Shown: positions 1 through 24,422 of the stretch, in pieces | How the letters are laid out: the number at the start of each line of letters is the position of its first letter | Numbering within the stretch: position 1 is the first letter of the stretch | Source of the DNA: an uncultured Verrucomicrobiota bacterium | Lineage (GTDB): Bacteria > Verrucomicrobiota > Verrucomicrobiia > Palsa-1439 | Length of the DNA stretch: 61,314 bases | Direction of reading: 5' to 3' | Assembly: GCA_964566575.1 (NCBI GenBank) | Contig: CAZMKD010000237.1 | Location: forward strand, 1-61,314 | The notes under the pieces: model-generated | What the model was told of the DNA's origin: nothing | Databases searched by the model: none | What the model saw: only the letters and a program-made list of their open reading frames with translations | Program-made: the position numbers and the translations under genes

Positions 1-31
1 CAGGACTCCGACCCAACACCAACACGCAACC

Positions 32-60
32 TTGACAGAAAGATTCCACTTTCTTATGAA
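32..60 (+). promoter_or_regulatory. sigma70-like promoter with internal operator palindrome
   Basis: TTGACA(32-37)-N17-TATGAA(55-60); AGAAAG(37-42)/CTTTCT(49-54) inverted repeat in the spacer. Confidence 0.5.
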
Positions 61-357
61 CACAACTGCCAGCGTCGCTGCGCTCCGATGGGTGGAAACA
101 TAAAAGCGAAATCACTGGTAACTTTCACCGAAATCCGCACTCAGGAACATGAGGAATTCAGATGTTGCTCCCAACAGCCGTGTAATTTACGGTCGCCCGT
201 ACGAAGCCAATCTGGTGAATGCGTTTGGCGGGCCGGTTGGCGACACGGCATACTGTCTGGTAGGAATCCGAATCGACATCAAGGGATACCCCCTTTGGTG
301 AGTCCCCCGCAGTAATCGGCGCGTTGGCAGACAGCCGGAGCGCGCACGTGGCCGTCG

Positions 358-519
358 CTAAATCATCAGCAACACCGGCTCGTCGCGCACCAATTCCCGC
401 ACCACGGCGCGCCGCACGTATTCTGCCACGGTGAGTTTGTGGCCACGCACCCGTGCCTTCACTTGCTGGTGGATTGGCTTCGAGAGATTACACCGCACTT
501 GTGGAGATCGCGCTTTCAT
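358..519 (-). CDS. ribbon-helix-helix (CopG/Arc-like) DNA-binding protein, 53 aa; not in ORF track
   Basis: Hand translation MKARSPQVRCNLSKPIHQQVKARVRGHKLTVAEYVRRAVVRELVRDEPVLLMI; strand-helix-turn-helix pattern with TVAEYVRRAV. Confidence 0.65.
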   Translation of the reverse strand: MKARSPQVRCNLSKPIHQQVKARVRGHKLTVAEYVRRAVVRELVRDEPVLLMI

Positions 520-527
520 CACATCAT

Positions 528-821
528 CTATGGTTTGCTACCGATAATCCTCCGTGCCAAGTTTGCTTCTTCAATGCGTTTGGCACGGCGGAACTCTTCG
601 TACCTAGGGGCAATCGCTTGTTGGAGAGTGTACCGCGATAAAGGGGTTCCCTGTCGGGCCTCGTCGAGAAGTTTGCAGAGTGCATTCAGCCGTGCCGCCT
701 TCTCAGTGAAGGGGCAATACTCAAATTCGTACCAAGCACGCTTAATCGGTTCGAGCAACTCCGGCTTCGCCACCAAAAACCTCCGCCAGAATCTGCGCGC
801 TGTGCGCAGATGACATGCCAC
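528..821 (-). CDS. small helical hypothetical protein (true start may be GTG at about 773, MAKPELL)
   Basis: ORF track; overlaps upstream ORF end in operon-like fashion. Confidence 0.5.
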   Translation of the reverse strand: MACHLRTARRFWRRFLVAKPELLEPIKRAWYEFEYCPFTEKAARLNALCKLLDEARQGTPLSRYTLQQAIAPRYEEFRRAKRIEEANLARRIIGSKP

Positions 822-1200
822 CGTACCGGGTTAGGTGCTTCACGCGAAGTTCCTCGACTACGGCATCAAAATTCGCGGGATTCAAACCAACTGCTTTTAG
901 GTGGGTGTCTTCGATGCGTTTGAGTTGGAGTGAAAGCATTCCGCCCAATCCCATCAGTGCTTCCAACAGAGGCCGGTAGTACGAGGGGATACTCCCCGGT
1001 GTCTGCAAATTCAACATTCGCTCTTCGGCAGTGGAGAACAGGCGAACGGCGGAGAGCCAAAAACCAACTTGTGTGAATGTGTTGTCACGAATCGATTCCT
1101 CGTTTACCTCACGGATTAATTCGTTTACAGCCGCCCAATCGCCGGGTGTGATGTCTAGAGGCAAGTTCTGCTGGTGTGGATTTTGTTCTAGCTGGCTCAT
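742..1200 (-). CDS. hypothetical protein, 152 aa
   Basis: ORF with GAGAGGA RBS and an upstream promoter. Confidence 0.65.
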   Translation of the reverse strand: MSQLEQNPHQQNLPLDITPGDWAAVNELIREVNEESIRDNTFTQVGFWLSAVRLFSTAEERMLNLQTPGSIPSYYRPLLEALMGLGGMLSLQLKRIEDTHLKAVGLNPANFDAVVEELRVKHLTRYGGMSSAHSAQILAEVFGGEAGVARTD

Positions 1201-1243
1201 CCCGATCCTCTCTCACTGCGTTGTCGCCGCAATTCGATATTGA

Positions 1244-1272
1244 AATCTACGCTTCGCTACCGATGTTGACAA
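1244..1272 (-). promoter_or_regulatory. sigma70 promoter of the 742-1200 gene
   Basis: Minus strand TTGTCA-N17-TAGATT. Confidence 0.6.
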
Positions 1273-1383
1273 GCTCTAATGCCAACGTGCTCATTCTCAT
1301 GTAACCATTAACAGCAGACATTGAGCCAATGCACTTGGGAGATCGCGCTTTCATCGGGAGCATCGGGAAAAACGGGGTGGCGA

Positions 1384-1761
1384 TCATTGTAACCCCATCG
1401 AGTCTATAAAATGCTGTTTCTGTGCTGTTGCTGAAGGATCTTCAGCAACACTATAATGGGTGGTTGTTTCCGTGATTACCCATCGACCGCCCTGATAGAC
1501 AAGTGATGATGTCAGGCGCGCGTTCCCCTCTTTATCCAGCAACCGTATCGTGCCGACAAACGGGGACACCAAGGAGTTTACCTCGTGTGCGGAGTACCAG
1601 ACGGTGCAGCAGTTGGAATATTCCGCCCGCACCCTTTCGACACACTGCTCCAGTTCGGCTGTCGCCCTTTTCTTCACTTCAAACGGCCCCTCCTTCTGAC
1701 GGCAGCCCGTCACCAGCAGTGACGCGAGGACAATGGCTTTCAGCAGCGGTGTCGTAATCAT
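1384..1761 (-). CDS. putative lipoprotein, 125 aa
   Basis: MITTPLLKAIVLASLLVTG-C lipobox; start moved from 1881 to 1761. Confidence 0.6.
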   Translation of the reverse strand: MITTPLLKAIVLASLLVTGCRQKEGPFEVKKRATAELEQCVERVRAEYSNCCTVWYSAHEVNSLVSPFVGTIRLLDKEGNARLTSSLVYQGGRWVITETTTHYSVAEDPSATAQKQHFIDSMGLQ

Positions 1762-1882
1762 GCGCGGTATTCTAAGGTTGGATGGGTTGCGTTGGCGATC
1801 TCCCGTGAATCGGTAACGGTTGCGCTTAACTGGATGCCGGTGCCCGTCTGGTGAGCGGACATGGTTTTCAAACTCGATCAAT

Positions 1883-1943
1883 GGCGGAGGTGCTCTCTAC
1901 CGAACCTGACATCAAAAGCCGACGGCGTAGGAGACTCCCTACC
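1883..1943. repeat. degenerate GTAG-type REP-like repeats
   Basis: Two CTACC-terminated units (GGTAGAG/GGTAGGG on minus), similar ends to the 22877-22948 element. Confidence 0.3.
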
Positions 1944-2256
1944 GGGCGGGGGCTACAAGGCAGGCAGGGCAGACGATTCGACGCGGGCTAATTCGTTGCA
2001 CACCGCCCGGCGCACGTAGGCTGCCACCGGCACGCCGAGCCGACGGGCACGGGCTTGAACAAGTCGCAGGACTGGCTTGGGCAGGCTGGCTTTGATCTGA
2101 GACGGGCAAGGGCGTTTCGTCATGCTCGGTTGATAGCACCGGCAGAGACGGCAATCAAGGCACTCTCTTTTTCAGATTTTGCGCAACCCGACGCCGACGT
2201 GTAGCACCGTCCGCTGACGATTGTACCCGCCCCCTATCGTGTTGCCGGGAGTACCG

Positions 2257-2326
2257 ACTTATCAAGCGCACTTGTAAAGTCTCACCCCGAAATGCCCTTG
2301 ATAAGTGCCGATTAGACTTGATAGGT
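2257..2326. repeat. three 10-bp CTTGATA(A/G)GT motifs beside tRNA 3' end
   Basis: ACTTATCAAG 2257-2266 inverted to CTTGATAAGT 2297-2306; CTTGATAGGT 2317-2326. Confidence 0.6.
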
Positions 2327-2370
2327 GGGGAAGCTGGTAGTATAAAAACCACCAGATTCCTTAAGAAAAT

Positions 2371-2445
2371 TGGCTCCGCAGGTAGGACTCGAACCTACAA
2401 CCCGCGCATTAACAGTGCGCTGCTCCACCATTGAGCTACTGCGGA
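2371..2445 (-). tRNA. tRNA-Asn(GTT)
   Basis: Cloverleaf: acceptor TCCGCAG/CTGCGGA, anticodon arm GCGCA-CTGTTAA-TGCGC, GTTCGAG T-loop, encoded CCA. Confidence 0.97.
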
Positions 2446-3634: not shown

Positions 3635-4613
3635 GCCCGAAGACCTTTCTCAATTCGCCCGGCTTCACAATCCCCCGCTCGGTGATGATGCCGGTAATGT
3701 ATTTGGCCGGCGTCACATCAAAGGCGGGGTTGCCGGCCTGCGCGCCGCGGGGCGTGACGCGTGTGTTGCCGACGAAATGCACTTCGTCTTCGTCGCGTTC
3801 CTCGATCGGAACATCGTCGCCGCTCCGGCACTGCAAGTCGATCGTCGAACTCGGCGCAGCCACGTAAAACGGAATGCCGTTTTCTTTCGCGACCACAGCT
3901 TTCTGATACGTGCCGATCTTGTTGGCAACATCGCCGTTTGCCGCGATCCGGTCGGCGCCCACGATACACAAATCCACTTCGCCGCGCCGCATATAGAAAC
4001 CGCCGGCATTGTCAGCGATGACCTTGTGCGGCACGCCTTCCTGCATAAACTCCCAACTTGTCAGATTCGCGCCCTGATTGCGCGGCCGCGTTTCATCCAC
4101 CCACACGAATACCTTCCGCTTCTTGCGATGTGCGAGGTAAATCGGCGCGGTCGCGCTGCCCCAATCCACGATGGCAAGCCAACCGGCATTGCAATGCGTC
4201 AGCGCTCGGCAACCATTCTTGATCAGCGGCAACCCGGCCTCACTGATCTTGCGCATCCGTTCGACGTACTCATCCGCAATGTGTTCGGCTTCGGCGACCG
4301 GGTCGTCGAGATGTTGCATCACCCGGTCGAGGGCATGTTTGAGATCGGCGGCTGTCGGGCGCGTGCGGAGCAGCGTCCGGTAGGCTCGCCGAAGATCAAC
4401 GCCCTCAAGACACGCTTGTGCCAACCCATACGCCGCCGTCGCGCCGATTGTGCCGGCGCCGCGAATCATCATGCTCTGGATGGCGTGTGCGGTCTGACGG
4501 TGGTTCGTCAATCGCCGCAACGCAAACTTGTGCGGCAGCAACGGTTGGTTGATCACGATCACATCGCGGCCTTCCATCCAAACCGCCCGGTAATTCTTGC
4601 CACGCACCTTCAC
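3627..4613 (-). CDS. mtnA: S-methyl-5-thioribose-1-phosphate isomerase
   Basis: IRGAGTIG, THCNAGWLA, DETRP..QG..LT, GADRIAANGDVANKIGTY. Confidence 0.95.
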   Translation of the reverse strand: MKVRGKNYRAVWMEGRDVIVINQPLLPHKFALRRLTNHRQTAHAIQSMMIRGAGTIGATAAYGLAQACLEGVDLRRAYRTLLRTRPTAADLKHALDRVMQHLDDPVAEAEHIADEYVERMRKISEAGLPLIKNGCRALTHCNAGWLAIVDWGSATAPIYLAHRKKRKVFVWVDETRPRNQGANLTSWEFMQEGVPHKVIADNAGGFYMRRGEVDLCIVGADRIAANGDVANKIGTYQKAVVAKENGIPFYVAAPSSTIDLQCRSGDDVPIEERDEDEVHFVGNTRVTPRGAQAGNPAFDVTPAKYITGIITERGIVKPGELRKVFGRG

Positions 4614-4621
4614 AGGCAGTC

Positions 4622-4650
4622 ATGCTAACGTCGCGCGCGCGCGCCGACAA
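4622..4650 (-). promoter_or_regulatory. mtnA promoter, near-leaderless
   Basis: TTGTCG-N17-TAGCAT, 8 nt before GTG. Confidence 0.55.
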
Positions 4651-4791
4651 GCCCGTTCAATCGTCCGGGGGATGTCGTACCTAAGTAAACAATCACGCCG
4701 CGCGAACGCGGCTTCCCGGCCTGGGAACTCCCCTGCGGTCGCCCCAGCGCTCATTCCCGGGCGGGACCGAAGACACCCAAAATATCGGTTT

Positions 4792-4820
4792 GCAAAACCC
4801 TTGCTCAGTAAGGCTTTTGC
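4792..4820. repeat. 11-7-11 imperfect palindrome
   Basis: GCAAAACCCTT-GCTCAGT-AAGGCTTTTGC; outer TATCGGT(4783-4789)/ACCGATA(4824-4830). Confidence 0.6.
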
Positions 4821-4944
4821 CGGACCGATATGCCGGCTCACAATCGCGGTTAACCGTCGTCCCTTGGCAGCTTTCCAACCAAACTCCAGTTTTGACTTTC
4901 GCTCCCGAGTAAGGCCGAATACTAATGATAGGCGACGAGAGACT

Positions 4945-5370
4945 ATGCCAGACCTAGGATTACAACCGGGAGAGAGAGTTGTTGAGTTGGCTGCGGTCGT
5001 GCGGACGGCAGCGATTGTGAGTGGTGCTGTTGCTGGAGTTGCTACCACGTGGCTGGTCAGACGGAGTTGGTGGTTTTCTCTAGCAGCTTTCGTCTTGGGC
5101 GCAGTCGCCGGTTTTGTCGTTAGTCAGTTCGTTTCGCGGCTGTACCGTTCAGCCGACGGCCAGACAGTAGTTGCAAGAGTCGGGAGCACTTCATTGCCCG
5201 CTACTATTCCGGCAGGCTTAGCTGGTGGTGTATCGGTCGCCTTGGTGGTCGGCATAGCCGTGATTCTGCTTTTGTCAGCGCAGAGCCGTGCGGTGCCGGT
5301 ACTCGGCACTTCGCTCGGCTGCGGGATTGTGCTCGGCATTATCTTCGCGTGCTTGGCATCGCTTGTATGA
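4945..5370 (+). CDS. membrane protein, integron cassette A
   Basis: Hydrophobic 141-aa ORF between GATAGGC (4927) and an attC site. Confidence 0.75.
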   Translation: MPDLGLQPGERVVELAAVVRTAAIVSGAVAGVATTWLVRRSWWFSLAAFVLGAVAGFVVSQFVSRLYRSADGQTVVARVGSTSLPATIPAGLAGGVSVALVVGIAVILLLSAQSRAVPVLGTSLGCGIVLGIIFACLASLV

Positions 5371-5377
5371 GTGCAGA

Positions 5378-5482
5378 GCCTATCCATGCAGTCGAGCGAA
5401 CCGTGAGCCAGCCGACCGGCCGGGTTGCCGGCGGCGGCGTCAGGGGCGGCTGGCTCGCGTTCGCTCACTTTTATCGTTAGGA
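5378..5482 (+). mobile_element. attC site (cassette A)
   Basis: R'' GCCTATC, L'' TCGAGCGAAC, paired arms GAGCCAGCCG/CGGCTGGCTC, L' TTCGCTCA, R' GTTAGGA; extrahelical bases. Confidence 0.85.
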
Positions 5483-5489
5483 AGCATCT

Positions 5490-5861
5490 ATGAACACACG
5501 CGAACTTTGGTCACGCATTCTGATCACTGTTGGCGGGATCGCCATGCTGGTCGGAGCTCTTGATCCGCTGGAAGGATCGCTAGTTATTCTTCCCGGCAGC
5601 GCCGTCGTGACGCTCGGCACATTCCTAAGCAACGGTAGACGCGGGTTGCTCATTTACTGGATATGGATTTTCATCCTGATAGCAGCCGGGGTGGGCGCGA
5701 TGTTTGCGTTGAGCGCGTTCGGAGGTATTGGCGGACGTAGCGGGCATTCAGTGTGGTGGGGGCTGCTGATCGTGCCTTATCCCGTTGGTTGGATTATGGG
5801 AATCGTCAGTCTCGTGTCTAGGCTGATCGGAACCGTTCGAAACCGCCATGCCGCTTCCTAA
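5490..5861 (+). CDS. membrane protein, integron cassette B
   Basis: 123-aa multi-TM ORF whose TAA stop lies inside the attC R'' box. Confidence 0.8.
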   Translation: MNTRELWSRILITVGGIAMLVGALDPLEGSLVILPGSAVVTLGTFLSNGRRGLLIYWIWIFILIAAGVGAMFALSAFGGIGGRSGHSVWWGLLIVPYPVGWIMGIVSLVSRLIGTVRNRHAAS

Positions 5862-5915
5862 CCATCCGCTGGAGGCAACGCGGCTTCGCCGCGTGCCTCA
5901 GCTTGAGCGTAAGCT
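5856..5915 (+). mobile_element. attC site (cassette B)
   Basis: TCCTAAC-CATCCGC-TGGAGGCAACGCGG-CTTCG-CCGCGTGCCTCA-GCTTGAGC-GTAAGCT; GCTTCCTAAC complements GTTAGGAAGC at 5476. Confidence 0.85.
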
Positions 5916-6032
5916 GAATGCGGCCGGTGCAGCACGGCGCCTCGAAAAAGTTTTGGGAATAACCGCAGTCGGGATCTTTCGTCAATAACCGGCCGGTAAT
6001 TGGATTTCCATGAACGCCGCGTAGCGCTCGGA

Positions 6033-22948: not shown

Positions 22949-23114
22949 GGGAAGGAGCAGACGCCGCACGCGACCGTTCCGCATGAAACGCTGGCTGGCA
23001 ATCAGGTTGACGCGCTTTGCCCTTCGTCCTAATCTGTCGCCGTGGAGAACGTTAAATGCACATTTGTCTTTTGCCGCTGACTTTGTCCCATTACTAATGT
23101 TCGAGGAAAATACC

Positions 23115-23609
23115 ATGACGGGTTCCATGCCTGGGATAGTAAGCCGGAGAACAGCATTGGTGCTGAACGCGGTTATCGTCGTTGCTTACGTTACCATTGG
23201 CGTGCTCGCCCCAACGCCTTGGATAATGTTTGGCGGTTTCCTTCTGCTGGCCGTTGCGATTCGGTGCGCGACACTTTGGTGGATTTCGAGCTCTGTGCAA
23301 GATACTGAGGGGGGCTCGCCACACTTTGCCCTCCGCATAGTGTTTTTGAATCTTTTTCTCGGTCTGCTTTTCGTCACTGCTGTTATTGGTCTTCTCTGGT
23401 GGCTCGGCCACTATTGGCTTTCTGGCATCAAGGTCATCGTCCCCTTGGTCGCTGTGTTCGTTGCATACAAGTCAACGTTTCCGGTGATTTCATGGAGTTC
23501 GCGATCGAAGGACGACAGAATCCTCGAACCAGACGGTGCAGCGAACGGGAGCCAGCCGATTCGCTCAGAGACGAATACAACGTCATCGGCGGCTGGCTCC
23601 CGTCGCTGA
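23115..23609 (+). CDS. membrane protein, integron cassette C
   Basis: GAGG RBS; four hydrophobic segments; reading frame continues through the attC. Confidence 0.7.
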   Translation: MTGSMPGIVSRRTALVLNAVIVVAYVTIGVLAPTPWIMFGGFLLLAVAIRCATLWWISSSVQDTEGGSPHFALRIVFLNLFLGLLFVTAVIGLLWWLGHYWLSGIKVIVPLVAVFVAYKSTFPVISWSSRSKDDRILEPDGAANGSQPIRSETNTTSSAAGSRR

Positions 23610-23623
23610 CCTTTACGTTGGGC
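23523..23623 (+). mobile_element. attC site (cassette C)
   Basis: R'' CTCGAAC (complement GTTCGAG at 23099), L'' TGCAGCGAAC, L' GTCGCTGA, R' GTTGGGC. Confidence 0.88.
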
Positions 23624-23637
23624 GTTCTATCTACGCG

Positions 23638-24195
23638 ATGATAAGATACATTCAACGTAACAAGGAGTGGATTTTTTCGGGAATAGGAGTCGCCATATTG
23701 TTGCTTCTCCTCTCGTTGTTTAGGTTTCTTCTCACATCCACACGTCCCGAATCACGAACGCCTGCGGCACTCGGCTCAAAGGCGTTAGCGCATTCTTCAA
23801 CATCCTCTCCGTCGCAGTCGCAATTCTCGCCAATAACGCTCGATGAGGTGCTTCAAGCGTCATCCGATTCGTCACGCACTGAGCTTCAGAAGGAAGAATT
23901 TCGGCGGAGATATGAAGGTAAGATAGTTGAGTGGGATGCTTAGGTGGACAGCGTGTCGAGCCAGGGGTCGCGGGCCGATGAAGAAATTGTTTTGGTATGG
24001 CATTCCCCACATACGAAGCCTTCCCCGTCGAGCGATATTTTTTTCGCTGCAACCTTTCCGGCCAGTTACAAAGAGAGCCTGCTCGACCTTCATCCCGGCG
24101 ACACGATTACGGTTCGTGGCACACTTCAATTTGTGAACAATTCATCGCATAACCCGAGGCTGGTTAAGTGCGAGCTGATACAACTTCGAACGTAA
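23638..24195 (+). pseudogene. membrane-anchored OB-fold-like protein interrupted by in-frame TAG (23941-23943), cassette D
   Basis: RYEGKIVEWDA*VDSVS...LHPGDTITVRG reads in one frame. Confidence 0.65.
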
Positions 24196-24200
24196 TGAAC

Positions 24201-24264
24201 CCGCAACGGCAATGCGCTTCAGCGAACAGGACTTACGCCCTGTCGCTGAGCTTTTACGGAATGC
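24201..24264 (+). mobile_element. degenerate attC site (cassette D)
   Basis: TTCAGCGAACAGG/CCTGTCGCTGA arms intact; R'' spacing longer by 3 nt and R' eroded. Confidence 0.6.
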
Positions 24265-24422
24265 GGCCGAGAACGACACCGCGCTTTGAAAAAGTTTAAA
24301 AAACAACGATCCAACCCCCGTGAATTCTGTTTCCGGTTCTTAGCAACAATTTCCCAGTCAACTCCGAAAACGTTCGGGGTTGAATCCGGCACGCCTCGTG
24401 CCGTATAAGTTCCAACTGGAAC

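Follow-up and report, generated by a model that had tools for sequence, protein, structure and literature searches.

In a stretch of 61,314 nucleotides of DNA from an uncultured Verrucomicrobiota bacterium, which was analysed as a whole and is hereafter called the window, the segment 4928-5476 is likely to be an integron gene cassette, the first of two in a CALIN, with an inherited, compensated GAT/ATC recombination core for which an ordinary integron integrase would suffice. The covariation of the two halves of this core is real and selected, the site was very probably processed by an integrase, and an unusual integrase is not implied. The first six bases of an integrated cassette belonged, in its circular form, to its own R' box, and are therefore expected to be the complement of its own R'' box. 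On the + strand of the window, GATAGGC (4927-4933) and GCCTATC (5378-5384) are exact reverse complements (7/7) at two cassette boundaries, as stated in the initial annotation. The first of them is a composite R'-type box, in which G4927 belongs to the flank and ATAGGC to the cassette. The span of 4927-5384 originally assigned to the cassette does include both boxes, but 5384 is the end of R'' only; according to its two junctions, cassette 1 extends over 549 bp on the + strand (4928-5476) and comprises a leader, ORF1 and its own attC site (attC1, 5378-5482) through the G of the R' box. The leader is 17 nt long and its initial ATAGGC is part of the R'-type box. ORF1 (4945-5370, + strand) encodes a hydrophobic membrane protein of 141 aa, with 37 homologues of 139-154 aa and one of 209 aa; it has no curated family, and searches of Pfam and NCBIfam revealed nothing significant. 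The database gene call for ORF1 (P0001, 232 aa; 4597-5370) begins too far upstream and crosses the left junction of the array; the conserved start is at 4945, and every cassette-borne homologue is about 140 aa long.

The positions of both boxes are fixed independently. A covariance model (R1), built from nine metagenomic attC sites and zero window sequence, aligns R'' to exactly 5378-5384, while on the left side the likeness to the flank of another array of the window, array B (..TACTAATG), ends at G4927, and the likeness of the window to a homologous cassette on contig L011 likewise begins at G4927. For two fixed positions, a 7/7 complement would arise by chance with a probability of 4^-7, or about 6e-5, and over the whole window a reverse-complement 7-mer within ~12 nt either side of the same spacing occurs at 0.23% of positions. 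Sequencing error is an unlikely source of the two boxes, because an independently assembled homologous cassette (L011 from ENA; L012 and L016 from JGI) carries both of them.

The identification of the element as a cassette with an attC site, also made initially, was borne out by its match to R1 and by the occurrence of its homologues within attC arrays. A scan of the window with R1 detected four sites, all on the + strand: 23523-23623 (41.9 bits), 5856-5915 (34 bits), 24209-24264 (25.8 bits) and 5378-5482 (23.2 bits); with the filters off, the same four sites were found and none upstream of 4927. The last one, attC1, has the lowest score of the four (E 1e-4 in the whole window, 4e-6 locally; + strand only) and is 69% identical to the array B site 23523-23623. 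It starts 7 nt after the stop codon of ORF1, and its 105 bp lie inside the known range of attC lengths (~57-141 nt). The geometry is canonical, with a 7-nt R box, spacers of 5 and 6 nt and a variable loop: R'' GCCTATC (5378-5384), spacer (5385-5389), L'' (5390-5401), L' (5459-5469), spacer (5470-5475) and, in situ, a canonical R' GTTAGGA (5476-5482). L'', AGT[C]GAGCGAAC, pairs with L', GTTCGCTCACT, leaving unpaired C5393, the extra base at the fourth L'' position, which corresponds to an extrahelical G on the bottom strand; the bottom strand folds with -31.4 kcal/mol (z -3.6). Cassette 1 departs from the literal consensus (R'' RYYYAAC, R' GTTRRRY), in that its R'' keeps RYYY followed by the triplet ATC and its cassette-borne R' reads G|ATAGGC; the triplet is the sole departure of attC1 from the attC criteria, and its pairing is kept. 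A strict regular expression (RYYYAAC..GTTRRRY) missed every real site of the window, because the R' boxes are hybrids, and Rfam, which has no attC family, gave zero matches at the locus.

Cassette 2 (5477-5909, + strand) begins with TTAGGA and contains ORF2 and attC2 through the G of the latter; GTTAGGA (5476-5482) is the exact complement of its R'' box TCCTAAC (5856-5862). ORF2 (5490-5861, + strand) encodes a membrane protein of 123 aa with more than 1176 homologues and has its stop codon within the R'' box of attC2. The attC2 site (60 bp, 5856-5915, + strand; R'' TCCTAAC, L'' GCTGGAGGCAAC, L' GTGCCTCAGC, terminal R' GTAAGCT) thus overlaps the ORF2 stop; it has an E-value of 6e-8 with R1, folds with z -3.0 and is likewise inside the known length range. 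Homologues of ORF1 were found as cassettes in attC arrays on seven contigs (L017, L018, L020, L021, L022, L140 and L141), in all but L020 with GTTRRRY a few bases 5' of the ATG and a matching RYYYAAC 3' of the stop, and homologues of ORF2 on three (L026, L028 and L031). The ORF2 family, for which Pfam and NCBIfam hold no curated family and which some sources label 'purine-cytosine permease-like', is very widespread and well conserved (255 loci in species-representative genomes, ~48-86% identity) in Verrucomicrobiota, Acidobacteriota, Chloroflexota, Planctomycetota, Actinomycetota, Spirochaetota and other phyla. Most of its loci lie outside attC arrays of this family, and a scan of genomes with ORF2 yielded few attC sites.

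The complementarity between the start of a cassette and its own R'' box was surveyed in attC arrays of the same family, which were fetched from IMG/VR by a motif scan and contained 95 R1 matches. Of the 69 cassettes bounded by two R1 matches, 54 open with a 7-mer that is the reverse complement of their own R'' box, and all 54 are GTT/AAC. A formal covariation count over 72 start/R'' pairs, 31 of them distinct, gave 91.7% of paired cells, where shuffled pairs had 72.2%; the covariation score was 0.494, a value reached by 0 of 500 shuffles, which scored 0.123. At triplet position 2, the distinct rows comprise 28 T-A pairs, one A-T pair (the type of the window and L011) and 2 unpaired combinations. 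The GAT/ATC pair is rare in nature: no further case was found among ~120 related attC sites, and a full-text literature search retrieved no published report of a natural GAT/ATC attC. A search for ATC-type R'' boxes produced three matches to the motif CTATC in viral contigs, which have neither a hairpin nor an R1 match and were dismissed as chance. Other departures at position 2 are few and mostly without clear compensation, namely GGT in L135, L109 and L110. On L135, an IMG/VR contig, R'' AGCTACC (814-820) and the R' of the next attC, GGTAGCT (1132-1138), are exact complements around an inserted cassette; they may represent a natural compensated GGT/ACC core, a reading made uncertain by the recurrence of GGTAGCT elsewhere on the contig. 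Departures at the first triplet position were also observed: in L020, CTTAGGC (1057-1063) terminates the attC that follows the ORF1 homologue, and L114 and L118 have R'' boxes GCCTAAA. Changes at position 1 are known to need a matching partner site (PMC2811028).

The GAT/ATC core is shared with the closest cassette-borne homologue of ORF1, P0002 (72% amino acid identity; on L011 and on L012/L016), in whose cassette GATAGGC lies 12 nt 5' of the ATG and GCCTATC 7 nt 3' of the stop. The pair is thus inherited and not private to the window. The two leaders differ (TGACAAGGCAAG in the L011 cassette versus GACGAGAGACT in cassette 1), and on L011 the GATAGGC box is preceded by an ordinary attC (R'' CCGTAAC), unlike the flank in the window. 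The R'' box sits in the locally well-conserved 3' end of the ORF, so that less weight attaches to its 7/7 conservation than to that of the 5' box, and there is only one clearly independent second copy with both boxes, since L011 and L012/L016 may share a sample. In L019 (55% identity) the sequence ATAGGCGAC is kept before the ORF1 homologue, which has the ATAGGC start, and the attC is lost. L140 and L141 (58-59% identity) carry GTTAGGC/GCCTAAC, the exact canonical counterpart. In a neighbour-joining tree, L019, L011, the window and two box-less copies form one clade and the cassettes with canonical boxes another. The simplest history suggested by these comparisons would have an ancestor undergo a single T-to-A and a single A-to-T change; its descendants would have kept the pair while diverging deeply, and the surroundings at the G|AT junction would have changed at least once. 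Cassettes of the ORF1 family with either core coexist in one community, as the ENA assembly ERZ27256510 holds both L141 (GTTAGGC/GCCTAAC) and L011 (GATAGGC/GCCTATC). On L011, a near-empty cassette (864-1022) consisting of ~30 nt and a 129-nt attC lies upstream of the GAT cassette and begins with GTTAGGAAGC, the same ten bases that open cassette 2 of the window.

The variant found here has been constructed in the laboratory: Frumerie, Ducos-Galand, Gopaul and Mazel (NAR 2010, PMC2811028) engineered a GAT/ATC variant of attCaadA7 and assayed it with IntI1. Compared with the wild type, recombination was 1.9x for attCaadA7-GAT with attI1, 4.6x for wild-type attC with attI1-GAT and 3.2x for attC-GAT with attI1-GAT, whereas an uncompensated attC (GTT with ATC) recombined with attI1 at 6e-6 vs 2.2e-3, i.e. 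~370-fold less. The GAT site was cleaved in vitro, GAT was described as a preferred secondary site of IntI1, and GTT as kept in all integrons characterised by 2010 (PMC2811028). The engineered site and attC1 carry the same two reciprocal substitutions, at triplet position 2 and in its R'' partner, and the uncompensated construct has the configuration of attC1 in situ. On the other hand, the former is a laboratory-made class 1 attC of 60 nt, while attC1 is a natural site of 105 nt known from sequence, which belongs to an environmental attC family of Verrucomicrobiota. The consensus of IntI1 for cassette insertion into genomes is GWT, a route proposed for isolated cassettes (Loot et al., bioRxiv 10.1101/2022.09.11.507474), and the left junction of the array, G|AT, is likewise a triplet cleaved by IntI1; secondary sites, however, are recipient targets, whereas in the window the AT comes with the cassette, whose own R'' box holds its counterpart. 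By analogy with the engineered variant, the cassette of the window may be recombined by an integron integrase, and a verrucomicrobial integrase would be expected to behave like IntI1. The locus is a natural and rare form of a known element; the competence of the variant for recombination with IntI1 has been known since 2010.

The initial annotation had suggested an integrase that processes GAT-core sites. No such special enzyme is needed, because IntI1 recombines the compensated GAT/ATC site at or above the wild-type rate (1.9-3.2x) and the same arrays hold canonical GTT/AAC sites. A stronger version, in which the host clade has an enzyme with a preference or requirement for GAT cores, and GAT cassettes are exchanged in a pool of their own, would be in line with the persistence of the variant across a clade of cassettes; we hold it to be quite improbable, given that all other attC sites in the window, in L011 and among the ~120 related sites are GTT/AAC, that the GAT cassette is flanked by canonical ones, and that IntI1 accepts GAT without loss.

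An equally improbable reading is that GATAGGC is part of a conserved, attI-like landing site in the left flank and that its match to R'' reflects pairing of the site with the cassette. It bears on the comparison of the two-cassette cluster described above (array A) with array B, a second two-cassette cluster at 23099-24264 (+ strand; R1 41.9 and 25.8 bits). The first cassette of array B starts with GTTCGAG (23099-23105), has an ORF at 23115-23609 and an attC at 23523-23623 (R'' CTCGAAC, R' GTTGGGC); the second has an ORF at 23638-24195 with an in-frame TAG (23941-23943) and a decayed last attC (24209-24264) with a damaged R'' box, which ends with GGAATGC (all on the + strand). The left flank of array A (4882-4926, + strand), ending with TACTAAT, resembles that of array B (23054-23098): blastn gave 61-67% identity over ~46-99 nt, TACTAAT G| stands at 4920-4927 and 23092-23099, and TACTAATG is present only at these two places of the window. 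The left flank was also considered as a decayed attC and rejected, as it has no R1 match with the filters off and no fold signal, and a scan for sigma-70 promoters gave no match in either left flank, where TACTAAT had been considered as a possible -10 box. The right flank of array A, GAATGCGGCCG..GAAAAAGTTT (5916-5953, + strand), resembles that of array B (24259-24297) with 79% identity over 39 nt, and these motifs occur together nowhere else in the window; compared with array B, array A is six bases longer (TAAGCT) from the terminal G to GAATGC. In agreement with a landing site, L019 has GAATACT..ATAGGCGAC upstream of its ORF1 homologue, as in the window, and a 175-bp repeat in L015 ends with ..TCGCTCCC..CATACTGACTAGGC, resembling 4897-4933. 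However, the same flank in array B leads into GTTCGAG, which pairs with CTCGAAC, the R'' of that cassette itself, in L011 the GATAGGC box follows an ordinary attC and not the flank of the window, and the alignment of the flanks is weak. The repeat in L015 (Verrucomicrobia MAG GCA_016200005.1) is ~175 bp long, stands at 1-175, 1437-1555 and 2583-2750, ends with ..TCGCTCCCAGCGAAAGCCATACTGACTAGGC and precedes small ORFs; it resembles the left flank of the window at 4897-4933. The ORF2 homologue of L015 starts after ACTAGGC and ends with TCCTAGT, reciprocal at two positions relative to GTT/AAC, and no attC of this family follows it.

Slightly less probable still is that the cassette is an inert relic, whose boxes match by coincidence, through two unconnected decay mutations or an error of assembly. 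The array has no nearby integrase and its terminal R' (GTAAGCT) is non-canonical, and the pseudogene and the decayed attC of the sister array B indicate that decay does occur here. Yet both boxes recur in an independently assembled homologue of 72% identity with a diverged leader and other upstream sequence, and an exact reciprocal pair at two fixed positions has the chance of ~6e-5 given above. The original argument that two independent decay mutations are unlikely is reinforced by the different context of this 72%-identical cassette and by the ATAGGC start common to the clade, including L019. We see next to no likelihood that the locus is unrelated to integrons, i.e. a gene for a small membrane protein with a terminator hairpin and a fortuitous inverted 7-mer: chance does produce such pairs, as four unrelated GATAGGC/GCCTATC pairs with a spacing of 300-700 nt were counted in 1.18 Mb of fetched loci, but the R1 matches are strand-specific, the geometry follows the canonical layout with its 7-nt R box, its 5-nt spacer and an extrahelical base in the fourth position of L'', the homologues reside in attC arrays and the boxes lie at independently defined boundaries.

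A compensated core inherited by an ordinary integron cassette would account for these observations as follows. The ancestor of the clade would have had GTTAGGC/GCCTAAC and acquired a T-to-A change at triplet position 2 and the reciprocal A-to-T change in R''. In the excised circle, the ATAGGC start of the cassette would be linked to the terminal G of its attC (..TTTTATCG|ATAGGC) to give the R' box GATAGGC, which in the folded bottom strand would pair 7/7 with R''. Selection for a fully paired R box would hold both changes together. Triplet position 2 itself would not be read by the integrase, so that any ordinary integron integrase acting in trans could integrate the GAT/ATC cassette. The cassette would have moved or been rearranged at the G|AT junction since the change of the core, and its mobility after this change is suggested by the difference of contexts. 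The predicted folds are consistent with this scheme, with -35.5 kcal/mol and 7/7 R-box pairs for the circular form, -31.0 for the site in situ, where R'' ATC faces R' GTT and the central pair is lost, and -35.7 for a hypothetical canonical version. The earlier suggestion that the reciprocal changes preserve pairing thus holds in the circular form, where 7/7 pairing of the R box is restored; judging by the engineered site, the circle should be a good substrate for an ordinary integrase, with the compensatory pair kept by selection for R-box pairing. In situ, attC1 is a hybrid of its own R'' (ATC) and the neighbour's R' (GTT), with an A.A mismatch in the bottom strand. Since this mismatch adjoins the cleavage point, attC1 is probably a poor substrate in its present place. 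One may speculate, with considerable reserve, that GAT/ATC cassettes are self-consistent and yet incompatible with mixed arrays, which would make them a natural ratchet that fixes cassettes in clusters without an integrase. In such a case, the circles would integrate as well as canonical cassettes or better, but beside GTT cassettes both hybrids would be mismatched centrally (ATC vs GTT downstream, AAC vs GAT upstream) and excision would drop by orders of magnitude; the cassettes could also split into partly isolated exchange pools.

To our knowledge, the GTT/AAC triplet is the only sequence common to all integron recombination sites, and it has been described as absolutely conserved in nature. 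Mutagenesis has shown that triplet position 2 is free, provided that the folded R box stays paired, and the locus described here offers a natural, evolutionarily maintained example of that prediction, in a phylum far from those of clinical integrons. This favours the idea that conservation of the triplet serves the exchangeability of cassettes and not chemistry. In practical terms, such sites will be scored too low or overlooked by attC finders and cassette-PCR primers in which AAC/GTT is obligatory.

As to their genomic setting, arrays A and B can be classified as CALINs in the core chromosome, because the tested ORFs of the window include no integrase and the neighbours are core genes. By definition, a CALIN has two or more attC sites on the same strand, separated by less than 4 kb, and lacks an integrase within 4 kb; of all parts of an attC site, the triplet shows the highest conservation (Cury et al. 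2016, PMC4889954). No integron integrase or other tyrosine recombinase was found among the 29 window ORFs scanned with Pfam; array A is accordingly not a complete integron (intI next to the array, with attI and Pc), and it does have the composition of a CALIN, with attC1 and attC2 374 nt apart on the + strand and no integrase among the tested ORFs within 4 kb. Both arrays share with the published CALIN and SALIN elements (PMC4889954) the close attC pair on the same strand, the lack of an integrase within 4 kb, the chromosomal location outside an integron and cassettes of unknown function. Insertion at attG sites (Loot et al., bioRxiv 10.1101/2022.09.11.507474) fits them less well: the right-side junctions, G|TA and G|GA, depart from the GWT consensus of IntI1, and random insertion of this kind does not predict the likeness of flanks on both sides. 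The shared flanks could go back to a landing site that is repeated and used in trans, or to the duplication of a platform whose cassettes have since turned over. The arrays were also considered as simple duplicates, which was rejected, as ORF1 is unrelated to the first ORF of array B.

Array A is bordered on one side by mtnA, an aldolase, a HAD hydrolase and a tRNA and on the other by a PHP protein and AddAB-like helicase-nucleases, while array B lies between dnaE and a gene similar to N-acetylglutamate synthase/kinase, with DUF72 and AMMECR1 genes and two ORFs without family matches farther along. The best matches of MtnA and ORF2 are in Verrucomicrobiota MAGs. No empty, uninterrupted site was found, because synteny upstream of mtnA differs in the relatives, the closest of which by MtnA (86% and 80% identity) have recR/ybaB/dnaX there. 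The tRNA gene (2374-2445, - strand) comes just after the mtnA-aldolase-HAD operon, and beyond it a stretch of lower GC content (0.54), with ORFs lacking family matches, extends to the edge of the window (1-2445). An integrase encoded next to the HAD gene in the relative L106 scored 21 bits, below the cut-off of 265 for integron integrases, and was rejected as such. This tyrosine recombinase of non-integron type occupies the place equivalent to the stretch on the tRNA side of the window, which may be a remnant or the edge of an integrated element.
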